Positions 11,249 to 63,461 are shown, counted from the first letter of the stretch. The stretch: DNA of 64,000 nt from Candidatus Dadabacteria bacterium (GCA_963805855.1 CAWDVW010000006.1:1-64000); one strand, 5' to 3'. Notes: generated by a model not told the origin, from the letters alone. Translations and numbers: made by a program.

Positions 11249-12091
11249 ATGATTAAAAGCTATTCAAGCAATTTGAGCTTGTCCAAAACTTTTCGAATTT
11301 TCGAACGTGCCAGATTCCCCGTAAAAAGATATTGTTTGCGTTGCAAGTATCGTGGTTTATCAAGATTATCAAATCGAAGATATTACTGCCGTCGTTGTAG
11401 TTACAAGTTTTCCGCGCTCACCAATACTCGTCTTAGCAGAAGCTTTCTTCCTCTAGATAAATGGTACGAATTGCTCTGGTGGTTTGCTTATGACCACACT
11501 GCTAACCAGACTGCAAAAGAAGTGAGGTTGCCTCAACAGAGGGTTCATAGATGTTTTTCTACTATTCGACTAGCCATTTACGATTATGAGCAACTCGAGA
11601 TGAAACATGTCCTGGGTCAGGCGAGGAAAGATGAGACGCTTGTAGATATTAAGAACGAAATAATGAAAAAGGCTGGCCTGAAATATTACGCGAAGGCAAA
11701 GGCCGTTAAACATTTTGGCGTTGCAAGAATTCAAAAGAACCCCGTTTTTTGTCTTTATGAATTAGGTGGTCGAGTATATATCGGGTCTATCAGTGAACCT
11801 GAGAAGAACACTTTCCAGGCGATAATCAATGGAACCATTCTTCTCGACGAGCCAAGAGACCAGAAAAAAGAAGAATACGAAAAGGATCAGAGGGATAAGA
11901 AACCTCATACGAATGCTATAGAAGAATTCTGCAGCTATTTAAAAGAACAAATCATTAAACATCATGGTGTATCAAAGAATAATCTTATTTACTATATCAA
12001 GGAGAAAGAATTTAGATTTAATCAAAGACAGTTAAGAAAAAAAGGATTTGTAGAAAAACTGGTTGCAATCTTGGTAAATCCCAGTCATTGA
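11249..12091 (+). mobile_element. IS1595 (ISXO2-like) family transposase, possibly degenerate
   Basis: Zn ribbon CLRC..CRRC, KDET, HTNAIEEF, KHHGVSK, YIKEKEFRFN; no clear terminal IRs seen. Confidence 0.75.
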
Positions 12092-12567: not shown

Positions 12568-13446
12568 ATGGTTAGAGATACGCTTAGCTCAGATGTTAAA
12601 TTCTTTTACACAATAAATGTTCCGAGCCTTTTTATTAAAGCTTTGTCTAATTCCCGCGATTTCATTGATCAATTTCGAAAACTTACGTCTGGATTGCGAT
12701 TAAACAGTAAAGAACATCTGGCTGACGTTGAATATGAGATTTGTTTGACGCCAAACGGCTATGGTAAACATCATATAAAAAGAAACGGAAGCATTGTTTA
12801 CAAAACCCATGATCGTGGTGACCTTCTAATAAAGTTACTTGTATCTGTTCAGAATGATTTTATACAAACTTTCGACGATCACCTCATTCTTCATTCAGCG
12901 TTAGTTATTAAAAATGGGAAGGCCATCGTTCTCCCTGGACATAGAAAAAGCGGCAAGAGCACACTTGTTATATCTTTGCTAAAACATGGGTTTAAATATT
13001 ACTCAGATGATATCACAGCTATTAATCTGAAATCATGGGGAGCTACTGGATTTCCAAGGGCCATAATGATTAGAAATGGATCTTTATCTTTATTTCCTTC
13101 TCTTAAACCGGAATTAAGTTGTTATAGTTACAAATTCAACAATGGTCATAAGTCAAAGAAGGTCCATTTAGGAATACCTTCAAAAAGGGTATTGGCGCCT
13201 TTGAATAAATCTTTTCCCATATCATCAATAATTTTTCCTAAATATAGTGCAAATGGAAACACATCCATAAGCGATATACGAAATTCAACTGCTGCATTAA
13301 ACCTATTGGCTTGCACCATTAATCAAAATAGTTTTGTCGATAGTGGTTTCAACACAGTAGCAAGTATTGTAAGAAATATCAGGTGCTATTCTTTGCAGAT
13401 AAAAGATTTGTCGAATGCTTCTGAAATTGTTAATGGGCTAATTTAG
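12568..13446 (+). CDS. HPr-kinase-related P-loop kinase
   Basis: LILHSALVIKNGKAIVLPGHRKSGKSTL (His + Walker A) and YSDD motif. Confidence 0.85.
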   Translation: MVRDTLSSDVKFFYTINVPSLFIKALSNSRDFIDQFRKLTSGLRLNSKEHLADVEYEICLTPNGYGKHHIKRNGSIVYKTHDRGDLLIKLLVSVQNDFIQTFDDHLILHSALVIKNGKAIVLPGHRKSGKSTLVISLLKHGFKYYSDDITAINLKSWGATGFPRAIMIRNGSLSLFPSLKPELSCYSYKFNNGHKSKKVHLGIPSKRVLAPLNKSFPISSIIFPKYSANGNTSISDIRNSTAALNLLACTINQNSFVDSGFNTVASIVRNIRCYSLQIKDLSNASEIVNGLI

Positions 13447-13489
13447 GGTACTTTTTCGTTACGTCGGGAATCAGAGTTTGGAGGAATAA

Positions 13490-13807
13490 ATGTCAAATGT
13501 CAAAGCGTCAAAAAAAATGAAATCGACTAATCACAATTTAACAAGTGAGAAAATAAACAGGAAAACTGACATCTTAAGAGAACAACTTGATGATGAGACT
13601 CTTCTATTTAATCCAAAGACTAGAAACACTTATGTTTTAAACGATATGGCTGATGTGATATGGGGGCTATGTGATGGAATGCATAGTCCTGAAGAAATTG
13701 CTGATGAAATTGTATCTGTATTGGATGTAGAGCCCGATATTGTATTTAAAGATGTGTCGAAAGTTCTTGAAGAATTCATCCGCCAAAATTTGGTTGAAGT
13801 AGATTAG
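13490..13807 (+). CDS. PqqD-family RiPP recognition element (RRE)
   Basis: LDDETLLFNPKTRNTYVLNDMADVIWGLCDG..SPEEIADEI..DVSKVLEEF..NLV; RBS GGAGG. Confidence 0.92.
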   Translation: MSNVKASKKMKSTNHNLTSEKINRKTDILREQLDDETLLFNPKTRNTYVLNDMADVIWGLCDGMHSPEEIADEIVSVLDVEPDIVFKDVSKVLEEFIRQNLVEVD

Positions 13808-13908
13808 TTTTTGATGAACCTGCAACTATGAACGATGGAGTATTTCCGCTAACTAGCGAATTTTCTGTAGCTTGATGCAGGGAGTTTCATTAAATGTTTT
13901 AGCCGTTA

Positions 13909-14140
13909 TGTCATCCCCGAAGTCAGTAGTCGGGGATCCAGAGGCATTGTTATGGATTCCCAATAACTGCGTTTGGGAATGACACGAGGGGGGTGGATTA
14001 CCGCGGACTATCCGCGAACGACAGAAAGGATAGGCGGGGTTTTCCAACCCGAACGATAAAACATCAGGAATGGAAACCTAAAGGTTTCCGCTACCTTTAG
14101 TTGAAATCCTATTTTGTGTAGCGGAGGACTTTAGTCCTCC
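13909..14140. repeat. REP-like cluster: RPE-like long hairpin, GATAG-type REP, and two GTAG-type REPs
   Basis: GTCATCCCCGA..TCGGGGATCCA..TGGATTCCC..GGGAATGAC (about 13910-13983); GATAGGCGGGGTTTTCCAACCCG (14029); GGAAACCTAAAGGTTTCCGCTAC (14072); GTAGCGGAGGACTTTAGTCCTCC (14118). Confidence 0.75.
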
Positions 14141-14497
14141 ATAAAATCGATTAGGTGAAAACTGCACCGTTATTCATCGACGATCTGTTATTCATTTTTA
14201 TTCTTTCTTTGTCTTGATAGAAAGAAACAAAAATCAAGGGCTGCAAAAAATTAGGAATTAATAAATCAATTCCTTCAGCTAAAAATATTTAATCCGACCA
14301 CGACCCCAAATCTTTTTTTAACGCTTTCGGAATTGATTTTGGCAATTTTTTGAATGCCCATTTAAAACCTAGAAAACTGTCCTCGAATTACTTGACATCT
14401 ACAGCAATGACATGTGGGACTTTCAGTTTTTATTATCATCTCCTGTAGTTTCCCGAAGGGGTATTAACTTTAAACCGATATTCTAGGACGTAAGTCA

Positions 14498-15734
14498 ATG
14501 AATCGAAAAGAAAATAGCCTCCTAGTGCTCCTCTTAAAAAATGAGATTAATTCGGAGGAGAGGGAAGAAGCGGTAAATATCACAAGTCGGAAACCTGCCT
14601 GGGACTATATCTTATCAAAATCAATTGAACTCGATTTGGCTCCGATAGTATATTTCAACCTTAAGACTCTGAGCAAAAGGTACCCCGAAGTCCTTGAAGT
14701 TATACCTGAGCACATTGTAGAAGAGTTGAAAAAGAAATACTACATAAATACTGCTAAAAACAAACTTTTTTTCGAAGAACTAAATAATATCCTTAATTCC
14801 TTCAACGAGGCCGGAATCCCTATCATAGTGCTTAAAGGAGCAGCTCTCGCAGAGCTTTTTTACAACGATAGAGGCTTAAGAAAGATGGTTGATATTGATA
14901 TATTGGTCAGAAAAGAGTACTTAGGACTCTCGGAAGAAATTATGAAGAAGCTTAATTACAATCCAAGAGAAAGTAATATCCCGTCCGATCGTCATTTCAT
15001 GGAAAATCACCACCATCTTGTTCCTTATTTGTCAGAAGATAAGCTAGTCCAAGTGGAAATTCATCATAATCTTATCCCAAATTCAAACCCTCATTCAATT
15101 GACCTCTCAAGAGTTTGGAAAAGGGCAGACAGGGTCGTCATAGGCGGGACAAATAGCATTGACTCTATGTCCGGAAGATATGCTGTTGCATCTATGCCTG
15201 CATGTATCCCTTACAGATACGTTTCTTAGGGAAACTTAGGGGTCTATGCTGATATTCCAGAAATTATACAAAAATGTAAAACAAATTTGAACTGGGATCA
15301 GATTCTCAAGCGAATCTAAAGAATATAGAATTATAACCTACATGTACTACACGCTCTGGAGTTGCAAGGAATTATTAAATACTGAAATTCCTGATGAAGT
15401 ACTGGAAAAATTGAAACGGAAAAAATCAACCGGATATATTGAAGATAAAGTTTTAAAAGGTCTAATTTGTCGATATGTCTTCGTGGCAGATCAGTCTGGA
15501 AATTTTATCCCTCTTGGAATCATCAGATCATTTGCACAAAAACTTTTACAAGATACGGGGAGAAGGAATATTTTTATTACATTTGCAATTAGCATAAGAG
15601 AAACTTTTAATAGTTCGATCGTAAGTAAATATCAGGGGCGAAAATTAATGCCCCTCTACATTTTCTTACAGGTTTTTCGAGTGTTTTTTAAATATTCTTG
15701 GATTAGATTTGAAAAAGGTAACAGGTATATATAA
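14498..15734 (+). CDS. Nucleotidyltransferase (NTP_transf_5-like), frameshifted near 15150-15320
   Basis: IVLKGAALA..RKMVDIDILV, VEIHH; an alternative frame continues LCPEDMLLHLCLH; ORF 15342-15734 is the C-terminus. Confidence 0.85.
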
Positions 15735-27775: not shown

Positions 27776-28204
27776 ATGCAGACCAAATCTTTTTATCGTA
27801 GAATGTTAATAATCTATCTCTCTGTTTTAGTATTTTGCTCGTTTAATGCATATTCGGCGGATTGGCAGCCATTGGGGGAAGCTCCAGAATCTCCAAAATT
27901 CGGCAAAACTGATTATTTTGTCGATATTGAGAGTATTAGTATAAATGGTAATATTAGGAGCGTCTGGTTAAAGTCTGTGTTTTCTAAGCCACAGGTATAT
28001 ACGCAAGGAAAGACCTATACCGATTTTTTGAGTTTTACATATTATAATTGCTCCAACAAGACTTATGGGGTAACCAGGATAGACGTCTATAGTCCGGATG
28101 GGGAACTTGTGGGATCAGAAAAACAGGATCTCAATTATGTCCCGATACCGGAGGGGAGTTTAGACGAAAAAATATATGAATTTATTTGCAAGTATAAGAA
28201 GTAG
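27776..28204 (+). CDS. Secreted surface-adhesin-E-like protein
   Basis: Signal AYSA|DW; YFVDIESI, VWLK, YNCSNK, IPEGS, FIC. Confidence 0.7.
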   Translation: MQTKSFYRRMLIIYLSVLVFCSFNAYSADWQPLGEAPESPKFGKTDYFVDIESISINGNIRSVWLKSVFSKPQVYTQGKTYTDFLSFTYYNCSNKTYGVTRIDVYSPDGELVGSEKQDLNYVPIPEGSLDEKIYEFICKYKK

Positions 28205-29469: not shown

Positions 29470-30309
29470 ATGAATTCCTATCACTACAGGCGCGTTTCAT
29501 GTTTAGTAGAAGGTGTCGGTAAAGAATTTGAGTTTCTAGACTTTTCAAACATACTCCCCACAATCGTTTTATTAACAGTTCTTCTATCTTCCTATGACGA
29601 TGCATTAGCCGTAGGTGGTATTTCCAATACAAAGGTTATAGTGCCTAGCGCAGAATCGGTTCCTAAGAAGCATCTTGAGATTGAACCGTTTTTTGGTCTG
29701 GTCTTTGCCGATGATGAGGATAACTCGGTTGGATTCGATGCCGGCAGCCGTCTTACCTTTGGTTTATTGGATAACTTGGAGGCTGGTGCGAATATTGGGT
29801 ATCTGTCCATTGCGGATTCGGATGTCATAGATACAGAAGCGGATTTTGGGAATGTAGAGGCCGGAATGAAATTCAGGTTCATTGATGAAGGAGCTAACTT
29901 CCCCTTCTCGCTGGCGTACCAGGGTGGACTCACATTTCCAACCGGTGGCAGTAACGACCTCTGGGTGTTCGAGCCATTTGGATTTATTCTTACAAAAAAT
30001 TTCAGCGATTCATTCTCCATGGATGCAGATTTTGTTCTTGCCCTGGTTGAAGATAAAAGTGTCGGGTTCGTCGCTGAAATAGGTTTTGGATACTTTGTTA
30101 AACCCTGGTTTCAACCGGTCATTGAGGCTGGATATTCACTTGATAGTGCCGAAGGCGAAGATAGTATTTCCGTATTTAATGTAACCGCCGGGTTTACAGC
30201 TCCCGTATCGGAAATGCTGACGATAATTTTTGGAGTTACTCCCGATCTTCATACAAGGAATGTGGACAAAGAAATATTGATCACGGCAGCATTTACATTT
30301 CTTTTTTGA
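29470..30309 (+). CDS. Putative outer-membrane beta-barrel protein (start uncertain)
   Basis: Signal-like segment ending ALA; amphipathic strands; FGNVEAGMKFRF, GLTFPTG; C-terminal Phe. Confidence 0.7.
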   Translation: MNSYHYRRVSCLVEGVGKEFEFLDFSNILPTIVLLTVLLSSYDDALAVGGISNTKVIVPSAESVPKKHLEIEPFFGLVFADDEDNSVGFDAGSRLTFGLLDNLEAGANIGYLSIADSDVIDTEADFGNVEAGMKFRFIDEGANFPFSLAYQGGLTFPTGGSNDLWVFEPFGFILTKNFSDSFSMDADFVLALVEDKSVGFVAEIGFGYFVKPWFQPVIEAGYSLDSAEGEDSISVFNVTAGFTAPVSEMLTIIFGVTPDLHTRNVDKEILITAAFTFLF

Positions 30310-30377
30310 CGTGTTTAAAGTTATAGCGGAATTACAATTAAGCGGAATCCTGTATGTCCTCATTTCATTGATTTTCT

Positions 30378-30697
30378 GGAGGACTAAAGTCTCCTCCGCT
30401 ACAGCTTTGGCCTACTCGTGACAGAAGAGGGGTTCATTCCCATTGGTTTTCCTCGGGGCTTGTAGCAGTGCGGCGATCTCATGAACTGTCATTCCCGCGG
30501 ATTCCCCGTTAAGCTCATACGGGGACAAGCGTTGGCGGGAATCCATGTCTTTATGTCTTGATCCCCGATTACGGAATTCGGGGATGAAAATAGGGGATGG
30601 GTCGCATTTAGTCTTGCGAGGAGTGTCCCGCAAATGTAGCGGAAACCTTTAGGTTTCCATTTCATCAATTTTTAGAAGGAATAAAGTCCTCCGCTAC
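30378..30697. repeat. REP cluster containing a 62-bp heteromeric REP doublet (30636-30697) and an RPE-like hairpin (about 30487-30587)
   Basis: GTAGCGGAAACCTTTAGGTTTCC, 16-nt spacer, GAAGGAATAAAGTCCTCCGCTAC; GTCATTCCCGC..GCGGGAATCCA. Confidence 0.75.
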
Positions 30698-30706
30698 ATC
30701 CTCTCC

Positions 30707-30749
30707 TTGACATAGGAATATTTTTTCCTATAATTTAGACTAATCTAAA
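30707..30749 (+). promoter_or_regulatory. Consensus sigma70 promoter with an overlapping DtxR/MntR-type operator
   Basis: TTGACA (30707)-16 nt-TATAAT (30729), followed by the dyad TTTAGA-CTAA-TCTAAA (30734-30749). Confidence 0.75.
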
Positions 30750-30791
30750 CATTTTGATTGGTTGATCTAAAGATAAAATTAATACATTCAA

Positions 30792-31481
30792 ATGATAAGT
30801 CCGACGGTTGAAGATTATTTAAAAGCGATCTACAAGCTTCAAAAAGGGAAGGACAAGGTAACCACGTCCGCCATAGCTGAGAGGCTCCAACTATCTAACG
30901 CTACCGTGACTTCTATGATAAAGAAGCTGGCAAAGCAGAAATTTGTAAAACACATCTCCTATCATGGAGTTGTTTTGACAGATGCGGGTGAAAAGGTTGC
31001 TGTGAAGGTGATTCGTCGGCATAGGCTGGTCGAGCTTTTCTTGAAGGAGATTCTAAAGCTGGAGTGGGACAAGGTTCATGATGAAGCTGAAAAGCTCGAA
31101 CATTATATATCCGATGAAATTTTGGACAGTATAGACAGGGTCCTCGGATATCCCAAGGCCGATCCCCACGGAGATCCTATTCCGACCAAGGGTGGCGATA
31201 TCGAGAATATAGAAGATAGATATACCCTGGCCGATGCCGAAGTGGGTAAAACATTGACGATCCATAGCGTCAGTGATGGTGATCCCAATAAACTCCGCTT
31301 TATGTTTAAACTGGGATTACTTCCCGGCGTAAGTATAAGCATAAGGAGTAAGACTCCGTTTGAGGGAGATCTGGATATCAAGGTTGGCAAATCTCACTAT
31401 CACCTTCCGCTGGAGGTCGCAAAGAAGATTTATGTAACTCAGGTTGAAGAAACCCTCGATCAGGTGGACAAGAAGCATTAA
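30792..31481 (+). CDS. DtxR/MntR-family metal-dependent repressor with C-terminal FeoA/SH3 domain
   Basis: EDYLKAIYKL, RRHRLVELFL, VHDEAEKLEHYIS, DPHGDPIP. Confidence 0.96.
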   Translation: MISPTVEDYLKAIYKLQKGKDKVTTSAIAERLQLSNATVTSMIKKLAKQKFVKHISYHGVVLTDAGEKVAVKVIRRHRLVELFLKEILKLEWDKVHDEAEKLEHYISDEILDSIDRVLGYPKADPHGDPIPTKGGDIENIEDRYTLADAEVGKTLTIHSVSDGDPNKLRFMFKLGLLPGVSISIRSKTPFEGDLDIKVGKSHYHLPLEVAKKIYVTQVEETLDQVDKKH

Positions 31482-31502
31482 CTCGGAGAGGAATTAAAGA
31501 CA

Positions 31503-33407
31503 ATGAGATTTAGTCTTGAGCGAGTCAATGATAACTTGGCACGATACCTAGTAATTTTGTTGTTATTTTCCGTGCCGGCAAATGCACATATCATCAAAGA
31601 GGAGCCTTGGCATCCTATACCAGCAGCCTATCTTAGAGGTTTATTCTATGCAAATCTAAAACCGATTGACTGGGACTTGATTGAGAAGGATTTCATGACT
31701 GTTAACGAACCGGGGTATCAGTTTACCTCGGTTTATGAAGCCTTTAAGCCCTTAAAGGAATTTAGCGGCGAAGATTATGAATCCTTGATAAAAGATGCTA
31801 TTGCAAAGAAGGATAGGGTAGCACTTTACACAACCTCTACTCGGGCCGTTTCACAGTTGATAAGATTTCGTTTGGCTAAAGCACAAGAGAATCTTGGCAG
31901 ACCGGGCGTCGCGCTCGAGGAGTTGCATAACGCGAGGAGGATCTACAGGGCATTTGAAAACTTTCTCGAACAAGCCGATCAAAAGGCTTACGACAATATG
32001 GGAAAGGCCTGGCTGGAGATGTCAAGCAGCACGGGAAGCTCCGGTATCCTTGGAGTGGGTGGGATGGATGCCGATCCAAACAGGTTTGAAAATGCGAGGA
32101 ACGTTGTAGAGGATTATTTAATCGATAATTACGAGTCCGAAGAAAAGGCGGGCTCGAGTGAGATAATTCCTCTGCCAAAAAAGGTTATCGCTGCAAATGG
32201 CAATTTAGAGATCGCTCCTTGGTTACCTCCCGGAACCGATTTAAACGATCAGGATCCCCTGCCGCGTCTTGTACTTAATTTCGAGGAGAGGGGTCTGGAT
32301 GAAAAGGATTTATTCTTGGTTGCCTATGGTGATATGTTGTTTGACTCCCCTGAAATATTTGGAGAACCTGCAAGGAACCTGGGTATAGCTTGTTCTACCT
32401 GTCATAATCGGGGTGACATTAATAAACGGTTCCTAATTCCGGGTATAAGCCAAGAACAGGGTTCAGTGGATGTAGATGGCCACTTTTTTAATCATCGGTT
32501 TAATGATCACAGGAGCGATGCTCTTGATATACCAAGTCTAAGGGGTTTGCGCTTTACGGCTCCATACGGTAGGGACGGCAGATTCACAAGCCTCAGGGAT
32601 TTTGTACGAAACGTTATTGTGAACGAATTCAGTGGTGACGAGCCGACACCATTGATGCTAGATGCCATGGTGGCATATATGTTCGAATTCGACTGGCTTC
32701 CCTCAACTTATTTGAATCCGGACGGCACATTGAATGACAATGCATCGGTCGAATCTAAACGAGGGGAAGTAATCTTCAATACGCCCTTTAAAGGAATGGG
32801 TGGTCGAGCATGCAGTACATGCCATATACCTAGCGCTAATTTCATGGATGGTTTGAGGCACGATATTGAATCAGGGAAACCCGCCAGTCCAGGCGCTCGT
32901 GACAGTTTTTTCGATACCCCCACACTTATAAACATTAAATATACCTCTCCTTATTTTCATGACGGGTCTTTAGAATCGCTTTCGGACGTTGTGGATTGGT
33001 TTGACGAGCATCATCATCTCGGGCTTTCAAAAAAGCAGAAATCGGATTTAGCTTCATACCTTGAATCTGTCGGGACGGGAGGAGAACCATTTGAGGTATT
33101 CGACGAAAAGAACACGCGCTTTTTGATGGACTGGAAGGAACTTTCTACCTTTGTAAGCACGTTAAATACACTAATACCAGCCCAAGATAAGTTTCACACC
33201 GAGCTTCTCCTAAAAACGGTATCGAGCGATCTGAGAGTCGATGCAATTGGCTTGCAAGACCTTGGTCAGGCCCCAAAGGTGTATGCCCTGTCTGAAAAAT
33301 TAGAAGAAATACTCGATGCCGTAGAAGCAAACGATTGGAATAGTTGTACAGGACTTTGGACCGAATATCAGGAAATGGAAAAAGAGTACGGTTCTCAACT
33401 TAAGTGA
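31503..33407 (+). CDS. Secreted di-heme cytochrome c, CcP/MauG superfamily, with long N- and C-terminal helical extensions
   Basis: Signal ANA|H; two CSTCH motifs; IPSLRG, TAPYGRDGR, DTPTL..TSPYFHDGS. Confidence 0.88.
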   Translation: MRFSLERVNDNLARYLVILLLFSVPANAHIIKEEPWHPIPAAYLRGLFYANLKPIDWDLIEKDFMTVNEPGYQFTSVYEAFKPLKEFSGEDYESLIKDAIAKKDRVALYTTSTRAVSQLIRFRLAKAQENLGRPGVALEELHNARRIYRAFENFLEQADQKAYDNMGKAWLEMSSSTGSSGILGVGGMDADPNRFENARNVVEDYLIDNYESEEKAGSSEIIPLPKKVIAANGNLEIAPWLPPGTDLNDQDPLPRLVLNFEERGLDEKDLFLVAYGDMLFDSPEIFGEPARNLGIACSTCHNRGDINKRFLIPGISQEQGSVDVDGHFFNHRFNDHRSDALDIPSLRGLRFTAPYGRDGRFTSLRDFVRNVIVNEFSGDEPTPLMLDAMVAYMFEFDWLPSTYLNPDGTLNDNASVESKRGEVIFNTPFKGMGGRACSTCHIPSANFMDGLRHDIESGKPASPGARDSFFDTPTLINIKYTSPYFHDGSLESLSDVVDWFDEHHHLGLSKKQKSDLASYLESVGTGGEPFEVFDEKNTRFLMDWKELSTFVSTLNTLIPAQDKFHTELLLKTVSSDLRVDAIGLQDLGQAPKVYALSEKLEEILDAVEANDWNSCTGLWTEYQEMEKEYGSQLK

Positions 33408-33425
33408 TTAAATGGAGAGAAAGAG

Positions 33426-34319
33426 ATGAAAAGAGCGATGAAGATTTCATGGTGTTGTCTTTTATTTTTATTCGCTTTCTATTTTTGTTTCTCAAAGGCT
33501 GACGCTGTGTCTGATTTGGAAAAGGGAAAGCCCTTGGTGCTTGCGTTTATACCGCAGGAAAATCCTGAAAAACTGATTGGAGACATCAAGATTATTACTG
33601 AGTATCTTAAAAAAGAGATTGGTATACCGGTTAAGGGGTTTGTGACCCAGGATCACGCAGCGGCTGTGGAAGCCCTTAGGAACGGTGACGCAGATATATC
33701 CTTTATGGGTGGATTACCCTATGTCCTTGCTCATGACCAGATCGGGGCAGAGGTTATTCTATCCGAGTTGTACAGGGGAAGTCCCACATATCGGGGTCGG
33801 ATCTTCGTCAGAAGAGATAGCGGCATAAAAAAACTAGATGATCTTCGCGGCAAGAGCATTGCCTTTGCGGATCCCATATCCGAGTCCGGCTACATCTATC
33901 CGCTTGACGTGTTTGTGCAGGCCGGGCTTTTCAAACCCACTGATGACCCTCAGAAATTCTTCGGGACTGTGTATTTTGCGGGCGGTTATCAGCAGGCGAT
34001 TCAGGCTGTGGCGAATGGTTTGGTGGATGCAGCGGGATCCAGTCAATTTGCCGACTTGCTTTTAACTCCCAATCAACTGGAAAAGGTCACCTGGATAGCC
34101 GAGTCAAAGCCGATACCTTCTCACCTGGTCTGCGCCCGAAAGGATTTGGATGAGCGGAAAAAAGAGGCTTTTAAGAAAGCTATGTTGAAACTCAATCTGC
34201 CAGAATATAAACATCTTCTCAGGCATGTCTATAGCCCCGACGGTTACATCGAGGCTAATCACGGGGATTACGAGTCGGTTGAGGAGATGGCCAGGCTATA
34301 TGGATTCCTTAATAAATAG
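33426..34319 (+). CDS. PhnD/PtxB-like ABC substrate-binding protein with a non-canonical ligand pocket
   Basis: FIPQEN, DLRGKSIAFADPISESGY..P, AVANGLVDAA, ESKPIP; signal peptide. Confidence 0.88.
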   Translation: MKRAMKISWCCLLFLFAFYFCFSKADAVSDLEKGKPLVLAFIPQENPEKLIGDIKIITEYLKKEIGIPVKGFVTQDHAAAVEALRNGDADISFMGGLPYVLAHDQIGAEVILSELYRGSPTYRGRIFVRRDSGIKKLDDLRGKSIAFADPISESGYIYPLDVFVQAGLFKPTDDPQKFFGTVYFAGGYQQAIQAVANGLVDAAGSSQFADLLLTPNQLEKVTWIAESKPIPSHLVCARKDLDERKKEAFKKAMLKLNLPEYKHLLRHVYSPDGYIEANHGDYESVEEMARLYGFLNK

Positions 34320-34330
34320 AGGAGCTTTAG

Positions 34331-35182
34331 ATGGAAGTAATCATAAATGCAGAGGGTACAATAGAAAGTTCTCAGGATAAAAAGGCCTCAAATGCAGTTT
34401 CGATGAAGGATATAAAGGTTCGCTATACCCGAAGCGGTCCTGTAGTACTAGACATAGAGCGGCTGGATATACATAAAGGGGAGCGAGTTTCTATAATTGG
34501 TCCGAGTGGTGCGGGCAAGACGACACTTTTGCGGTTGATCAATGGTTATGTTAACCCAGAATCCGGCCACATAAAGATTTTTGAATACAATAACGATATG
34601 GGATCAATCCGACAGGGAAATCTCAGGCGCAGGATAGGCTTTATCTTTCAGCATTTTAATTTAATCGACCGCGCTACAGTTTTTGAAAACGTATTGTGGG
34701 GCAGATTGGGGATCGTTAACCCCTTTCTAAGTGTATTCGGATGGTTTCCGCAGCGGGATAAGAAAGCGGCTATGAGAGCGATAAAGGAGGTAAATCTCGA
34801 AGAACAGGCAGGTCAGCGAACCGATACCCTGAGCGGAGGGCAGTTGCAAAGGGTTGCGATCGCAAGGGTATTGGCTCAGGAGGCTGAGATCATCTTGGCA
34901 GATGAACCTGTCAGCAATCTCGATCCCTCATTGGCTGATGATATTCTTGGATTGCTTGGAGAGGTTAGTAGCAGGCATGGGGTTACGCTGATAATGAATC
35001 TTCATCAACCCGCCCTTGCACAGCACTATGCCGACCGCATCATTGGATTGAGGGAAGGAAGGATCGTCTACGATAATGAAGCAAGGTTTCTACAAGCTGT
35101 TTCCCTTCGCTCTATCTTTGACCCCGGGATAAACATATCTCAAATGTTTAGTTCAAATGTACAAGAAAAACCTTCCTATTGA
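34331..35182 (+). CDS. PhnC-like ABC ATPase
   Basis: GPSGAGKTT, IGFIFQHFNL, LSGGQLQRVAIAR, ILADEPVSNLDP, NLHQ. Confidence 0.93.
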   Translation: MEVIINAEGTIESSQDKKASNAVSMKDIKVRYTRSGPVVLDIERLDIHKGERVSIIGPSGAGKTTLLRLINGYVNPESGHIKIFEYNNDMGSIRQGNLRRRIGFIFQHFNLIDRATVFENVLWGRLGIVNPFLSVFGWFPQRDKKAAMRAIKEVNLEEQAGQRTDTLSGGQLQRVAIARVLAQEAEIILADEPVSNLDPSLADDILGLLGEVSSRHGVTLIMNLHQPALAQHYADRIIGLREGRIVYDNEARFLQAVSLRSIFDPGINISQMFSSNVQEKPSY

Positions 35183-35975
35183 AGGTGGAATCCAGGGACT
35201 GGATTATCCGCGCCCAAGACTAATCGATAGTATCTGGCGTGCAGGCGGTATATTATTCTTGGTAATTCTTATAGCCTGGGCATGGTCAGGTACGGATTTT
35301 AATGTTAAAAAGCTTCTCAGCAGTATGCCACGCATGGCGGATTTTTTCGGCCGGATGGTTCCACCCGATATGAGCGTTGCAAAAACGGTATTTGTTTCAA
35401 CTGGTGAGACGGTGCAGATAGCGTTGTTTGGAACCTTCATCAGCGCTGTAGTATCATTCTTCTTCGGCCTTCTTGCGGCAGAGAATATTTCGCCGCGCTG
35501 GGTTAGTCAACCGATCAAGTGGTTTTTGGCAGTCCTTAGGGGTATTCCAGTAATCCTGTTGGCTCTTATGTTTGTCAGTACAGTAGGGTTGGGACCCTTT
35601 CCGGGTGTGTTAGCGATAGCTTTCCATTCCACCGGCATGTTAGGCAAGTTCTATGCTGAGGCGATTGAGAACGCCAGGAGTGGGCCTCTGGAGGCCCTTG
35701 ATAGCGTCGGTGCAAACCTCTGGCAGAGGATGCGTTTCGGAATTCTGACACAGGTCGGCCCCGATCTGGCAAGAGACACTTTGTTTAGGTTTGAATTAAA
35801 CCTTCGTGAGTCGTTAGTCCTGGGGCTTGTTGGAGCAGGCGGAATTGGTTTCTATATTTTACTCTACATACGTGCATTTCAATATGAGAAGGTCGCAACG
35901 CTTACGGTTGTAGTTCTTCTGATGGTAGTTATTGTTGAGCAAATAAGCGTTGCTGTGCGGAGGAGTCTGAGATAG
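35157..35975 (+). CDS. PhnE-like ABC permease
   Basis: ETVQIA, GLGPFPGVLAI, GMLGKFYAEAIE, RFELNLRESLVLGLVGAGGIG. Confidence 0.93.
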   Translation: MYKKNLPIEGGIQGLDYPRPRLIDSIWRAGGILFLVILIAWAWSGTDFNVKKLLSSMPRMADFFGRMVPPDMSVAKTVFVSTGETVQIALFGTFISAVVSFFFGLLAAENISPRWVSQPIKWFLAVLRGIPVILLALMFVSTVGLGPFPGVLAIAFHSTGMLGKFYAEAIENARSGPLEALDSVGANLWQRMRFGILTQVGPDLARDTLFRFELNLRESLVLGLVGAGGIGFYILLYIRAFQYEKVATLTVVVLLMVVIVEQISVAVRRSLR

Positions 35976-36100
35976 CTTGAATCTTACCAATTCTCATCAG
36001 GACTCCTTTTCTGGTATTGTTATATGCTAATCTAAATATATATCTCTAATCTTAGGTTTGAGGAATGAAGTAAATTATCTTTGATCAGGTTTTTAAGTTA

Positions 36101-36718
36101 ATGATTGATGATAAAACCAAGCTTAAAAGTTACAGTTACCTCAGTAAGTTGTACGCTAGAACAGGAGCATCTGTTCTAAATCCGGTTAGGGGCGTATATA
36201 GACTGGGTCAAGAATTGGGCTTCGAAAACGGAGAGATCGACGATATTCTTAATTACATTAGTAATGAAGGTCTAGCAATCGTGTATTTAAGCGAAGAAAA
36301 GGTAACAATCACAAATAAGGGAATCGGTGCAGTAGAGGAGGCGGAGTTAAATCCGGTGGCCACTACCAAATATTTCCCGGCTATCATAGGGGTTAGGAGT
36401 TTTGGTGGATCAGATGAATCGCAGTTACCAAAAAAGTCTTATGAAGCAAGGCGTGACACTGAAATAAGGTCAATTAAATTCAAGGAATTAAAAAAATCAA
36501 CGGAGCTGATAAAAGGCTCAATGGATAAACTGCAAATGACACCGGAACTTAAATCCAAGCTAAAGGCTGAATTAATCACGATAGATGTTCAAATCTCTCA
36601 ACCTAAACCGGATGTAGATGTAATCAGAGAATGCGTAGGTTCTATCAGGAGTATTCTTGAAAATGCCACCGATAGCCTGTTAGTCAGAAGATTGATGAGC
36701 CAGTTAATGAACCTCTGA
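36101..36718 (+). CDS. Hypothetical protein, N-terminal winged-helix-like
   Basis: 205-aa ORF; LGQELGF..ILNYISNEGL..ITNKGI. Confidence 0.6.
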   Translation: MIDDKTKLKSYSYLSKLYARTGASVLNPVRGVYRLGQELGFENGEIDDILNYISNEGLAIVYLSEEKVTITNKGIGAVEEAELNPVATTKYFPAIIGVRSFGGSDESQLPKKSYEARRDTEIRSIKFKELKKSTELIKGSMDKLQMTPELKSKLKAELITIDVQISQPKPDVDVIRECVGSIRSILENATDSLLVRRLMSQLMNL

Positions 36719-36753
36719 GCTAATGAAACGTTGCCCTTTCATGCGAGTTATTA

Positions 36754-37179
36754 TTATTCACCCTTAATTATTTCTTCTACTTTAATTCTAAATACCAGAT
36801 TCTTTCCAGCAAGTGGGTGATTGTAATCAACCTCTACTTCTTTTCCGGAGATGGATATTATTGTACAGTCCCCATTTATTGTCCTGATCCTAATGCCTAC
36901 CCGCGGTTCAATCTTGTTATTTTTAAAATATTCAATCGGGATTGTTCTGATAAAGTTATCATCAATATTGCCGTAGGCTTCTGCAGGTTTGACACTAAAT
37001 GACTTTTCTTCTCCTAGTGTCATTCCCATTATGGCGCTATCAAGGCACCTTATCAATTCCCCAGTGCCAATCCTCTTTGAAATAGGTTTATCTGATTTCT
37101 GAACAGGTGTGCCATCGTCGAGCATTGTTTCACAGAAAAATTTAACTGTGTCTCCAGCTTTAACTTTTCCTTCTCCCAT
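36754..37179 (-). CDS. FKBP-type peptidyl-prolyl isomerase (SlyD-like)
   Basis: VKAGDTV, GMTLGEEK, PAEAYG, VDYNHPLAGKNLVF. Confidence 0.93.
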   Translation of the reverse strand: MGEGKVKAGDTVKFFCETMLDDGTPVQKSDKPISKRIGTGELIRCLDSAIMGMTLGEEKSFSVKPAEAYGNIDDNFIRTIPIEYFKNNKIEPRVGIRIRTINGDCTIISISGKEVEVDYNHPLAGKNLVFRIKVEEIIKGE

Positions 37180-37310
37180 TTATCACTCCAATTTCGCTTG
37201 GATGTTGATATTATGGAATCCATTGATTTTATTTTCAATACTATGAGATACAAGTAGTTTTTGTTGCTGCATATCGGTTGTCTAAAAGCAACGCGGTAAA
37301 TTTGATTGAG

Positions 37311-41284: not shown

Positions 41285-41326
41285 TGAAAGTTAAAGTAAT
41301 TGATCTAACATCGTCCTTTCATTATC

Positions 41327-62437: not shown

Positions 62438-63461
62438 TGTAGATGCTCAGTAATTAGGTAACTCTTTTGGTAAAATGAATTAATCAAAGGAGGCCTAATG
62501 AGACATCGAGATATTGTTATTGTAAAGAGAGGGATTCCTATTCTTGAGGAATACGAAAGAACAAGGGCCAAAGTAACCCCAAGACCATTTAGATTTGTAA
62601 AAGACCTTTGCGAAGCCCACCATATAAAGAAAAAAGAGCTGCGTCGTTACTATTGCAAATGGATAGAAGGCGGCCGAAAACAAGAGAGCCTTTTACCGGA
62701 TAAGCGGGGTCCAAAACCAGGGAGTCGTAGAACACCTAAGGAGATGGAAAGAAACATAGTAAAGGCATACAGGCGATTCGGATCCAATAGATATGAGTTA
62801 GTTCTATTATTTAAACCATATTACTTAGATAAGACACCTTCACCAGCCACGATGGATAGAATAAAGGCACGTTATCCATTAAACGGGTCTGCAAAGAAGA
62901 TTATCAAGCGTTACGAGAAGCAAGCCCCAGGAGAATTGGCTCACATTGATTTAAGCAAGGTACCGAGCGACATAAGATATTCTCTTAAGATAAAAGGGCT
63001 CTACATTGCAGCTTTGTGTGATGACTGTACACGCATTAGCTATGCTGAGATACTTAGGGATAAGAAAGCTTCAACATTAACGTATTTCATGGCACGTTCA
63101 TTGTCTTGGTTTAAACAAATATACAACTTTGAATTTGAGTCAATCATGTCAGATAATGGACCTGAATTTAGGGGCAAGCTGCGATATGAACATCCATTCG
63201 AGACGATGTGCCAGGAGTTAGGGATAAAGCATATTTATACAAGAACGAACAGGCCGCAAACAAATGGGAAGATAGAAGCATTTTTCAAGATAGCTAAGAA
63301 GGAGTTCTTTTATCCAAATAAATTTGAATCTGAAGAGGATCTAATCTTAAATTTAGGGAATTTCCTATTTGAATATAATCACCTTAGAAGACATGGGGGA
63401 TTGAATTATGAAACGCCATTTGATAAGTTACAAAAAGTTACCGAATTAGTGAGCTAGTACA
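62438..63461 (+). mobile_element. Complete IS481-family insertion sequence (1024 bp) with 5-bp target-site duplication ACAGT
   Basis: IRL TGTAGATGCTCAGTAATTAGGTAACT; IRR (reverse complement) TGTACTAGCTCACTAATTCGGTAACT; ACAGT at 62433-62437 and 63462-63466. Confidence 0.9.
62498..63457 (+). CDS. IS481-family transposase (rve DDE core)
   Basis: RYEKQAPGELAHID, SDNGPEF, RPQTNGKIE, YNHLRRH. Confidence 0.93.
   Translation: MRHRDIVIVKRGIPILEEYERTRAKVTPRPFRFVKDLCEAHHIKKKELRRYYCKWIEGGRKQESLLPDKRGPKPGSRRTPKEMERNIVKAYRRFGSNRYELVLLFKPYYLDKTPSPATMDRIKARYPLNGSAKKIIKRYEKQAPGELAHIDLSKVPSDIRYSLKIKGLYIAALCDDCTRISYAEILRDKKASTLTYFMARSLSWFKQIYNFEFESIMSDNGPEFRGKLRYEHPFETMCQELGIKHIYTRTNRPQTNGKIEAFFKIAKKEFFYPNKFESEEDLILNLGNFLFEYNHLRRHGGLNYETPFDKLQKVTELVS

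Follow-up and report, generated by a model that had tools for sequence, protein, structure and literature searches.

We analysed a stretch of 64,000 nt from Candidatus Dadabacteria bacterium (GCA_963805855.1 CAWDVW010000006.1:1-64000), hereafter the window, which belongs to a genome of 3.11 Mb that is 93.8% complete. Its plus strand carries, at 30792-35975, an operon of five open reading frames (ORFs) encoding a DtxR-family regulator, a secreted di-heme protein and the binding protein, ATPase and permease of a PhnDCE-type ATP-binding cassette (ABC) transporter. Gaps of 21, 18 and 11 bp separate the first four ORFs and the last junction is a 26-bp overlap. An earlier reading of the window, made from the sequence alone (the sequence-only reading), had described a tight operon behind a consensus promoter with a dyad; the ORF spacing, a promoter agreeing with the consensus at 12 of 12 positions and a perfect 16-bp dyad were all found. 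The features of the operon are the following:

30707..30734 (+): sigma-70-type promoter, TTGACA-16-TATAAT, 12/12 consensus match
30734..30749 (no strand): operator dyad TTTAGActaaTCTAAA, core TTAG-N6-CTAA, 16 bp, a perfect dyad abutting the −10 hexamer
30792..31481 (+): DtxR-family regulator with a C-terminal SH3-like (FeoA) domain and Mn-type metal residues, from Pfam and residue mapping
31503..33407 (+): secreted di-heme protein, 634 aa, with two CXXCH motifs and a CCP_MauG match
33426..34319 (+): PhnD-fold periplasmic binding protein of a distinct clade, Phosphonate-bd 211.5 bits
34331..35182 (+): PhnC-like ABC ATPase, ABC_tran 117.2 bits
35157..35975 (+): PhnE-like ABC permease, TIGR01097

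The promoter is the sole 12/12 match among 17 promoter-like sites in 30000-37300, and the perfect TTTAGActaaTCTAAA dyad is present as a single copy in the whole 3.11-Mb genome. Its TTAG-N6-CTAA core alone is not rare, with 2 copies in the window where 1.57 are expected. RNA from the operon may be represented in one salt-marsh metatranscriptome library, in which four 151-nt contigs fall on the regulator and binding-protein genes with 0-4 differences each; DNA carry-over is possible for these contigs.

A genome scan with the di-heme protein returned 229 confirmed places, and 80 of them were kept as loci (L001, L005 and so on are labels of these fetched genome loci). The genes for the di-heme enzyme, the PhnD-like binding protein, the PhnC-like ATPase and the PhnE-like permease follow one another in this order and on one strand in 69 of the 80 loci. 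In nine of the 11 exceptions a contig end truncates the cassette, and L032 and L057 hold fragments only. Median identity is 66% for the binding protein, 52% for PhnE, 51% for the enzyme and 44% for PhnC. In the window's phylum, the enzyme and the binding protein were found in the same 12 of 120 genomes, where their genes are adjacent, and in a sample of the family of Paracoccus isoporae (the Rhodobacteraceae-family sample) both genes were found in the same 5 of 201 genomes. The binding protein of these five is 63-66% identical to that of the window, and all other PhnD-like matches in the sample are at most 37% identical. The enzyme and this binding-protein clade thus co-occur in 17 of 17 genomes and were never found apart. 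Judged by gene order and co-occurrence, the cassette is one conserved unit. The neighbourhood survey that the sequence-only reading had suggested for the di-heme and binding-protein genes therefore returned an ordered cassette, linked, as described below, to metal regulators.

The hosts of the cassette belong to the Thermodesulfobacteriota, Dadabacteria, Acidobacteriota, Caldilineaceae/Anaerolineae (Chloroflexota), Spirochaetia, Methylomirabilales and Alphaproteobacteria. The alphaproteobacterial hosts, many of them marine, include Roseovarius, Sulfitobacter, Marinovum, Paracoccus, Bosea, Hoeflea and others.

Regulators and operators of the cassette

The first gene of the operon encodes a member of the DtxR/MntR metalloregulator family, as had been proposed: PF01325 (Fe_dep_repress, 66.2) and PF02742 (Fe_dep_repr_C, 105.9) both match above their cut-offs, together with FeoA. 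No equivalog cut-off of NCBIfam was reached, the best model being a Thermus-type MntR (174.7 bits, under its cut-off of 350). The closest solved chains are 5zr4, 8pvt, ScaR and SloR, which come ahead of IdeR and DtxR. With residues 4-132 of the regulator matched without gaps to 6-134 of DtxR chains, its Asp8 and Glu100 occupy the positions of DtxR Met10 and Cys102, which we take to divide Fe-type from Mn-type members of the family, and H77, E81, H96, E103 and H104 are retained. With these Asp/Glu residues and these nearest relatives, the regulator probably fits the Mn-sensing branch (MntR, ScaR, SloR).

The only other DtxR paralogue of the genome lies directly after feoB and has a Cys at the Cys102 position, which gives it an Fe-type look. 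As a side observation, feoB and this second DtxR gene (G000:C7:558000-570000, labelled L089) are followed by an operon of c7/c3-like multi-heme cytochromes, a 4Fe-4S protein and NrfD; from its sequence and surroundings the L089 regulator looks like an Fe-type paralogue with a redox module of its own.

The dyad lies over the transcription start of the operon, a position that fits repression by a metal-bound regulator, so that the operon would be on when Mn is scarce. It stands above chance because of its fixed place after the −10 hexamer and its recurrence upstream of homologous cassettes. The core TTAG-N6-CTAA precedes the di-heme gene in 47 of 79 loci and was found in 0 of 79 control stretches, which for this count and for that of the Mur boxes below were taken inside the di-heme gene. 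Dyads of the TTTAGActaaTCTAAA type, with 0-1 mismatch, lie just after the −10 hexamer in L001, L005, L006 and L009, and a weaker one is present in L003; the layout of a promoter followed by a dyad recurs in those four loci and in the Roseobacter-type loci. A search of the window's genome for a wider regulon gave 16 one-mismatch dyads vs 30 for a reversed-pattern control, leaving other targets unsupported. The Irr ICE box (TTTAGAA-N3-TTCTAAA) is similar to the dyad but has one extra base between its half-sites.

Across the lineages, three converging routes of regulation point to manganese. In six loci, as in the window, a co-directional DtxR-family gene lies upstream of the cassette. The core TTAG-N6-CTAA also precedes eight cassettes that have no neighbouring regulator, and two such genomes encode Mn-type DtxR proteins elsewhere. 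The second route is that of the Roseobacter-type loci, 42 of which carry a divergent short MntR gene. One regulator of this type was scored; it passes the MntR equivalog (194.2 vs a cut-off of 153) and has the Asp/Glu residues. In 39 of these 42 loci, the intergenic stretch between the two genes has a TTGACA-17-TAGATA promoter followed at once by a TTAGCCatGGCTAA-like TTAG-N6-CTAA dyad; these dyads are close to the MntR boxes given in Table S5 of PMC1698941. The third route consists of Mur-box-like sites (at least 13 of 17 matches), which were found in 11 loci, mostly of Hyphomicrobiales, and in 0 of 79 controls; one of the 11, L048, belongs to the Roseobacter-type loci and has a divergent MntR gene. 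The site ATTGCAAATCAGTTGCAAC in Bosea nearly equals the Bradyrhizobium mntH site in Table S4 of PMC1698941, and the sites in general closely resemble the sitA and mntH sites listed in that table.

A Fur-family gene adjoins the cassette in four loci. In L019 (4973-6838) and L023, both from Bosea, mntH (on the minus strand), a Fur-family gene, a Mur box and the cassette follow in that order. The Bosea mntH scores 635.8 vs a cut-off of 430, and no DtxR-family gene was found in that Bosea genome. The metal is read as Mn rather than Fe because of the Asp/Glu residues of the regulators, the MntR equivalog, the Mur boxes and, in Bosea, mntH next door. The self-regulated mntR gene of Mesorhizobium (Chelativorans) sp. 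BNC1 is called 'enigmatic' in PMC1698941, the sole MntR box being upstream of mntR itself; a cassette of the present kind, divergent from mntR, may account for this gene.

The binding protein and the di-heme enzyme

The binding protein scores 187.1 on the broad subfamily TIGR01098 (cut-off 112.05) and 175.2 bits on the PhnD equivalog TIGR03431, which is under the cut-off of 261.1. The permease scores 275.8 on TIGR01097 (cut-off 216.7) and the ATPase 257.5 on TIGR02315 (cut-off 266.1). The expectation that automated annotation would mislabel the operon as phosphonate uptake was borne out by these family-level PhnD and PhnE matches, which arise despite the failed PhnD equivalog.

The closest solved relatives of the binding protein are PtxB, HtxB and PhnD (E 1e-25 to 1e-15). 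In Te_PtxB the ligand residues are Tyr55, Tyr100, Ser130-Thr131-Ser132, His160, the cap Tyr208 and Asp22 (PMC5700983). When the pocket was mapped on this structure (5jvb), with a +/-1 ambiguity at the His position settled by the family alignment, D22, Y55, T131, H160 and Y208 corresponded to Q44, H77, E153, Y188 and H233 of the window's protein, and Y100, S130 and S132 were retained as Y122, S152 and S154. Among 74 members of the clade, Q44, S152-E153-S154, G187-Y188 and H233 are each conserved in all 74, Y122 in 72 and H77 in 71. A search of 1.84 billion representatives gave 6949 relatives of the binding protein at E ≤0.001. In 37 full-length distant representatives (28-47% identical), His77 is present in none (33 have Tyr, 2 Phe, 1 Ala and 1 Ser), and neither is Glu153 in any of them.

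On this comparison, the binding protein is without the phosph(on)ate "STS-H" site and its oxyanion site is altered. Two His and one Glu are new in the pocket, which has also retained two Tyr and the two Ser at the helix end and thereby looks like a metal or metal-plus-anion site. The protein has no ZnuA/TroA-family (PF01297) match; the only PF01297 gene of the genome sits elsewhere, in a ZnuABC-type operon. A metagenome scan with the binding protein gave six short loci, and one longer protein matches it, with no di-heme part in that protein.

The 634-aa protein falls, by its motifs and its Pfam match, within the di-heme cytochrome c peroxidase (CCP)/MauG superfamily, and the secreted, di-heme, peroxidase-like protein of the sequence-only reading was recovered in each respect. 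Its CXXCH motifs, C297/C300/H301 and C437/C440/H441, are invariant in 50 homologues. Its signal peptide, read by eye from the sequence, ends in ...ANA directly before an H, and the mature enzyme starts with this nearly invariant His29. The sole Pfam match is CCP_MauG (PF03150, 41.9 bits, cut-off 25.6) at residues 433-497, and only residues ~378-527 resemble known di-heme proteins, namely hydrazine synthase gamma, CcpA, BthA and MauG. The first heme domain has no detectable match to known di-heme proteins; it is the most conserved part of the enzyme (64% of its positions are at least 90% conserved) and is rich in invariant Asp and Asn. The two c-type heme domains are flanked by an N domain (~29-290) and a C domain (~531-634), together ~370 extra residues, neither of which has a Pfam match at E ≤10. 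The ESM Atlas gave no usable match for residues 29-290, and the homologue P0104 scored at most 0.86 there, with no common family. Only 27 short proteins match the N domain, and they are mostly contig-end fragments.

The best NCBIfam models for the enzyme are the MbnH family (50.8 bits), the His-Xaa-Ser-system MauG-like family (47.6 bits) and MauG (41.7 bits), all far under cut-offs of 340-444 (MbnH 362.85, MauG 443.85). The enzyme family has Trp499-Phe500 where Shewanella CcpA has 'NTM', a motif that presumably carries the heme Met ligand. By its family scores and by the residues at the 'NTM' position, the enzyme does not appear to be a canonical CcpA, MauG or MbnH. It has 1478 relatives at E ≤0.001 among 7998 scored candidates, and the best 120 of them are 55-93% identical and 577-752 aa long.

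The complex of the enzyme (residues 29-634, with two hemes) and the binding protein (residues 28-297) was then modelled. The docking reached an ipSAE of 0.68 (0.66-0.69 between runs; best control 0.00), a mark that 116 of 157 solved complexes also attain, as do 2 of 215 mismatched pairs, although our prediction used custom alignments and a riding heme, unlike that calibration. The runs share at least 74% of their contacts, with a partner pLDDT of at least 83. In the enzyme, the predicted interface comprises residues 31-34, 133-188 and 575-594, which belong to the N and C domains and not to the heme domains. On the side of the binding protein, it comprises the mouth of the cleft (43, 75-79, 149-151, 182-190 and 194-222) and is more conserved than the rest of that protein. 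No fusion of the two proteins was found, so gene fusion lends the docking no support. Taken as a model, the prediction supports docking of the family-specific N and C domains of the enzyme on the cleft of the binding protein.

The candidate outer-membrane barrel and the genome context

Upstream of the region covered by the sequence-only reading lies one more ORF of interest:

29470..30309 (+): candidate outer-membrane beta-barrel channel, 279 aa as called, Phenol_MetA_deg; the true start may be an ATG near 29501

This ORF scores 27.2 bits on Phenol_MetA_deg (cut-off 22) and has a C-terminus of ...FTFLF. Homologues lie directly upstream of the cassette and co-directional with it in L001 (87%) and in L005, L006 and L009 (51-53%); in L001, L005 and L006 the barrel gene has its own promoter and the same dyad. 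In L013 and L026, both from Acidobacteriota, the gene just before the di-heme gene encodes a barrel of this family. Between the barrel gene and the operon promoter, at 30634-30699 of the window, we also noted an 18-nt inverted repeat (83% complementary, arms 30 nt apart); a similar element is present in L001, and it is not repeated genome-wide. At the other end of the operon, an ORF of 205 aa (36101-36718) begins 125 bp after the PhnE gene and is 90% conserved in L001, the closest relative. It was considered as a sixth operon gene and rejected, having no family and no signal peptide and being conserved in L001 only.

The statement of the sequence-only reading that phosphorus-catabolic genes and a Pho box are absent agreed with our searches. 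No phosphonate or phosphite catabolic family was found among the 54 window ORFs of at least 100 aa that were scanned, the window holds no C-P lyase, phnWX, ptxD-like or htxA-like gene, and a search of the 93.8%-complete genome gave no PhnJ. Around the operon there is no Pho-box-like site; a single match, with 3 mismatches, is at 41305, in what is a weak test based on an E. coli consensus. The genome has no Nramp, one ZnuABC-type system and a single PhnD-family protein. If the cassette imports Mn, it may from this gene content be the main dedicated Mn route in this genome.

Some of the homologous loci have further genes beside the cassette. In L061 (11234-14164) and L037 (11323-14250), the PhnE gene is closely followed by two genes convergent with it, which encode a YkuD-type L,D-transpeptidase and a heavy-metal P1B-type ATPase. 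This ATPase has 582 bits on TIGR01525 and does not reach the equivalog cut-offs of ZntA or CopA; a link to metal balance is possible. Copper-related flanks were seen in L041, L071 and L019 (SCO1/SenC, PCuAC, MerR with MerT, and YtkA-like with CusB-like proteins) and are not conserved across loci.

Elsewhere in the window, an exopolysaccharide region (1528-24595) encodes glycosyltransferases, a carbamoyltransferase, a sugar transferase, SLBB/Wza-like ORFs, a GNVR tyrosine-kinase-like protein, a mannose-1-phosphate guanylyltransferase and CpsB. An ISXO2-like transposase fragment (11249-12091) breaks this region up, and 62498-63457 encodes an rve integrase. The stretch 12568-15229 holds a PqqD-like small protein (13490-13807), an ORF of unknown family and an NTP_transf_5 'uncharacterised nucleotidyltransferase', and is maybe a peptide-modification cluster. 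The small ORF at 27776-28204 has a 60.7-bit match to Surface-adhesin protein E (Adhesin_E), a family that is unusual in this lineage.

Possible function of the cassette

With a probability of roughly 0.55, we read the cassette as a Mn uptake system for Mn starvation that is as yet undescribed: a Mn species would be processed by the enzyme and then transferred to the binding protein docked on it. Under plentiful Mn(2+), the Mn-type DtxR-family repressor would bind the dyad at the −10 hexamer and the operon would be off. Under scarce Mn, the di-heme enzyme, the PhnD-fold protein and the PhnC/PhnE importer would be made, in this lineage together with the outer-membrane barrel. The oxyanion site of the binding protein would have been rebuilt into a His/Glu/His/Tyr site, and the N and C domains of the enzyme would dock on its open cleft. 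There the enzyme would carry out a redox step on environmental Mn, either oxidising Mn(II) to Mn(III), which would make capture tight and selective, or reducing Mn(III)/Mn(IV) to Mn(II), and would pass the Mn product to the binding protein for delivery to the permease. The sequence-only reading had proposed a transporter repurposed for Fe or Mn, with the di-heme enzyme setting the redox state of the metal. Repurposing is supported by the link to metal regulators and by the loss of phosph(on)ate residues, and of the two metals Mn is favoured; the cargo and the redox step, like repression by Mn and hand-over by docking, are what we infer.

Several observations weigh against this reading, in addition to the distance between our complex prediction and its calibration. 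Mn-type residues are also found in DtxR relatives reported to sense Fe or Zn, TroR and others. Neither the TTAG-N6-CTAA core nor a Mur-box-like site was found in 13 of the 31 loci without an adjacent regulator, and the window's own barrel gene has no dyad before it, that upstream stretch differing from the one in L001. In the pocket, Tyr188 and His233 also occur in some sister clades, and three of the residues that bind the oxyanion remain, so that the His/Glu/His/Tyr set suggests a metal site without proving one. The enzyme side of the predicted interface is less conserved than the rest of the enzyme (17% vs 40% of positions at least 90% conserved). Finally, Nramp is present in 2 of 12 cassette genomes vs 30 of 108 others, which is no telling depletion; a complementary distribution of cassette and Nramp, considered on these counts, was rejected as uninformative.

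A more specific proposal, which we hold tentatively and consider doubtful as a whole, is that the cassette is the first import pathway for oxidised Mn. The enzyme would oxidise Mn(II) or capture Mn(III)-ligand complexes and, while docked, load a transferrin-like His/Glu/Tyr site, perhaps with an anion at the Ser152/Ser154 helix end, and the system would have spread by gene transfer through at least six phyla. If true, it would be the Mn counterpart of Fet3-Ftr1, EfeUOB or FbpABC and would provide Mn selectivity over Zn and Fe at nanomolar levels.

The enzyme could also serve Mn uptake without acting on the metal at all. As a MauG/MbnH-like maturation factor, it would dock once and oxidise a residue of the binding protein (for example an invariant Tyr or Trp) to create the ligand site. 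Enzyme and partner are indeed encoded 1:1 and always together, the best NCBIfam models are those of the MbnH and MauG-like families, Trp499-Phe500 stands at the 'NTM' place of CcpA, and the predicted docking is on a cleft with the invariant Tyr188, Tyr122 and His77. Against these points, the scores are far below the 340-444 cut-offs, the interface is formed by the N and C domains with no part of the heme domains, the nearest solved matches include hydrazine synthase gamma and true peroxidases no less than MauG, and a modified residue is not visible from sequence; we regard maturation as unlikely. Somewhat less likely again is a stress module for Mn limitation, in which a periplasmic peroxidase replaces the lost Mn-dependent antioxidant defence and the ABC transporter imports a non-metal solute. 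The enzyme does fall within the CCP/MauG superfamily, a Mn cargo is something we infer only, and Mn shortage causes oxidative stress according to the review PMC9334652. Such a module would leave unexplained the strict co-occurrence of enzyme and binding protein in 17 of 17 genomes, the ~370 extra enzyme residues that are predicted to dock, and the acidic and His substitutions of the pocket.

Uptake of another metal (Fe, or Zn or Cu), by a system whose regulators sense that metal or sense Fe as well as Mn, appears improbable to us. In its favour, the DtxR family includes Fe sensors, copper-related genes flank some alphaproteobacterial loci, and the mature enzyme opens with a nearly invariant His29, an N-terminal His being a feature of some Cu sites. 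In addition, TroR-type regulators are reported to respond to both Mn and Fe (PMC2628430). The window's regulator, however, has Asp/Glu and not Met/Cys, the Fe-type paralogue sits by feoB, the Roseobacter-type loci pass the MntR equivalog, the Mur boxes are like sitA/mntH sites, mntH is adjacent in Bosea, and the copper genes are convergent or divergent neighbours in a few loci only. Ordinary import of phosphonate, phosphite or hypophosphite, as the automatic names suggest, is very improbable. TIGR01098 is reached, PhnE lies above its cut-off and PhnC just under, PtxB, HtxB and PhnD are the closest solved relatives, and Y122, S152 and S154 are kept. On the other side stand the missed PhnD equivalog (175.2 vs 261.1), four changed ligand or cap positions, including a Glu in the anion motif, the lack of a C-P lyase, ptxD-like or htxA-like gene in the window, of a Pho-box-like site near the operon and of PhnJ in the genome, and the Mn regulators attached to the cassette in three lineages.

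As a Mn uptake system, the cassette would share features with several known systems and differ from each. It resembles PhnCDE, PtxABC and HtxBCDE in its Phosphonate-bd fold family, PhnE-type permease and PhnC-like ATPase; unlike them, it has S-E-S...Y for STS-H, with the pocket Tyr and the cap Tyr changed to His, lacks Pho control and catabolic genes, and is paired with a di-heme enzyme under Mn regulators. With MntABC, PsaBCA and SitABCD it has in common a binding-protein-dependent ABC importer and an MntR/DtxR-family or Mur operator at the promoter, including Mur boxes like those of sitABCD and mntH, whereas its binding protein is of another fold family, its permease is of the BPD_transp_1 and not the ABC-3 type, and a dedicated redox enzyme is part of the operon.

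The comparison with EfeUOB made in the sequence-only reading holds as an analogy, which extends to Fet3-Ftr1-type uptake: the shared idea is to couple metal import to a heme or redox enzyme of the periplasm, under a metal regulator. It does not hold as membership, since Pfam found no EfeU/FTR1 permease, DyP peroxidase or EfeO cupredoxin/M75 domain in the operon or its flanks. FbpABC also has a type II binding protein derived from an oxyanion binder, with His, Glu and Tyr ligands and an anion held at a helix N-terminus; here His77, Glu153, His233, Tyr122 and Tyr188 lie beside Ser152 and Ser154. No sequence relation to FbpABC was detected, the ligands of the cassette protein are putative, and its regulation points to Mn and not Fe. 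The pairs MauG-preMADH and MbnH-MbnP likewise combine a di-heme CCP/MauG core with a periplasmic partner that is always paired and docks, as predicted here; the cassette enzyme differs in scores far below the cut-offs, in having an ABC binding protein as its partner and in its unique N and C domains. CcpA di-heme peroxidases likewise have two c-type hemes and, in the C-terminal heme domain, the 'PYFHDG' motif, although only ~150 of 634 residues align, Trp-Phe stands at 'NTM', and the first heme domain and the flanking domains are without a match.

Full-text searches, with subscription journals outside their coverage, found no description of the cassette. The known bacterial Mn importers named in a 2022 review (PMC9334652) are NRAMP, PsaBCA-type ABC transporters, ZIP proteins, a few porins and a type VI secretion system (T6SS) route; a cassette under MntR or Mur control would, if our reading is true, add a new class of Mn importer. 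It would also correct a systematic mislabelling as 'phosphonate ABC transporter' and 'cytochrome c peroxidase', which inflates the counts of phosphonate uptake in marine and soil metagenomes. Moreover, docking of a redox enzyme on an ABC binding protein, and the conversion of an oxyanion fold to a probable metal site, could both be tested on the cassette. Should Mn(III) take part, the system would tie cellular Mn nutrition to the environmental pool of Mn(III)-ligand complexes.

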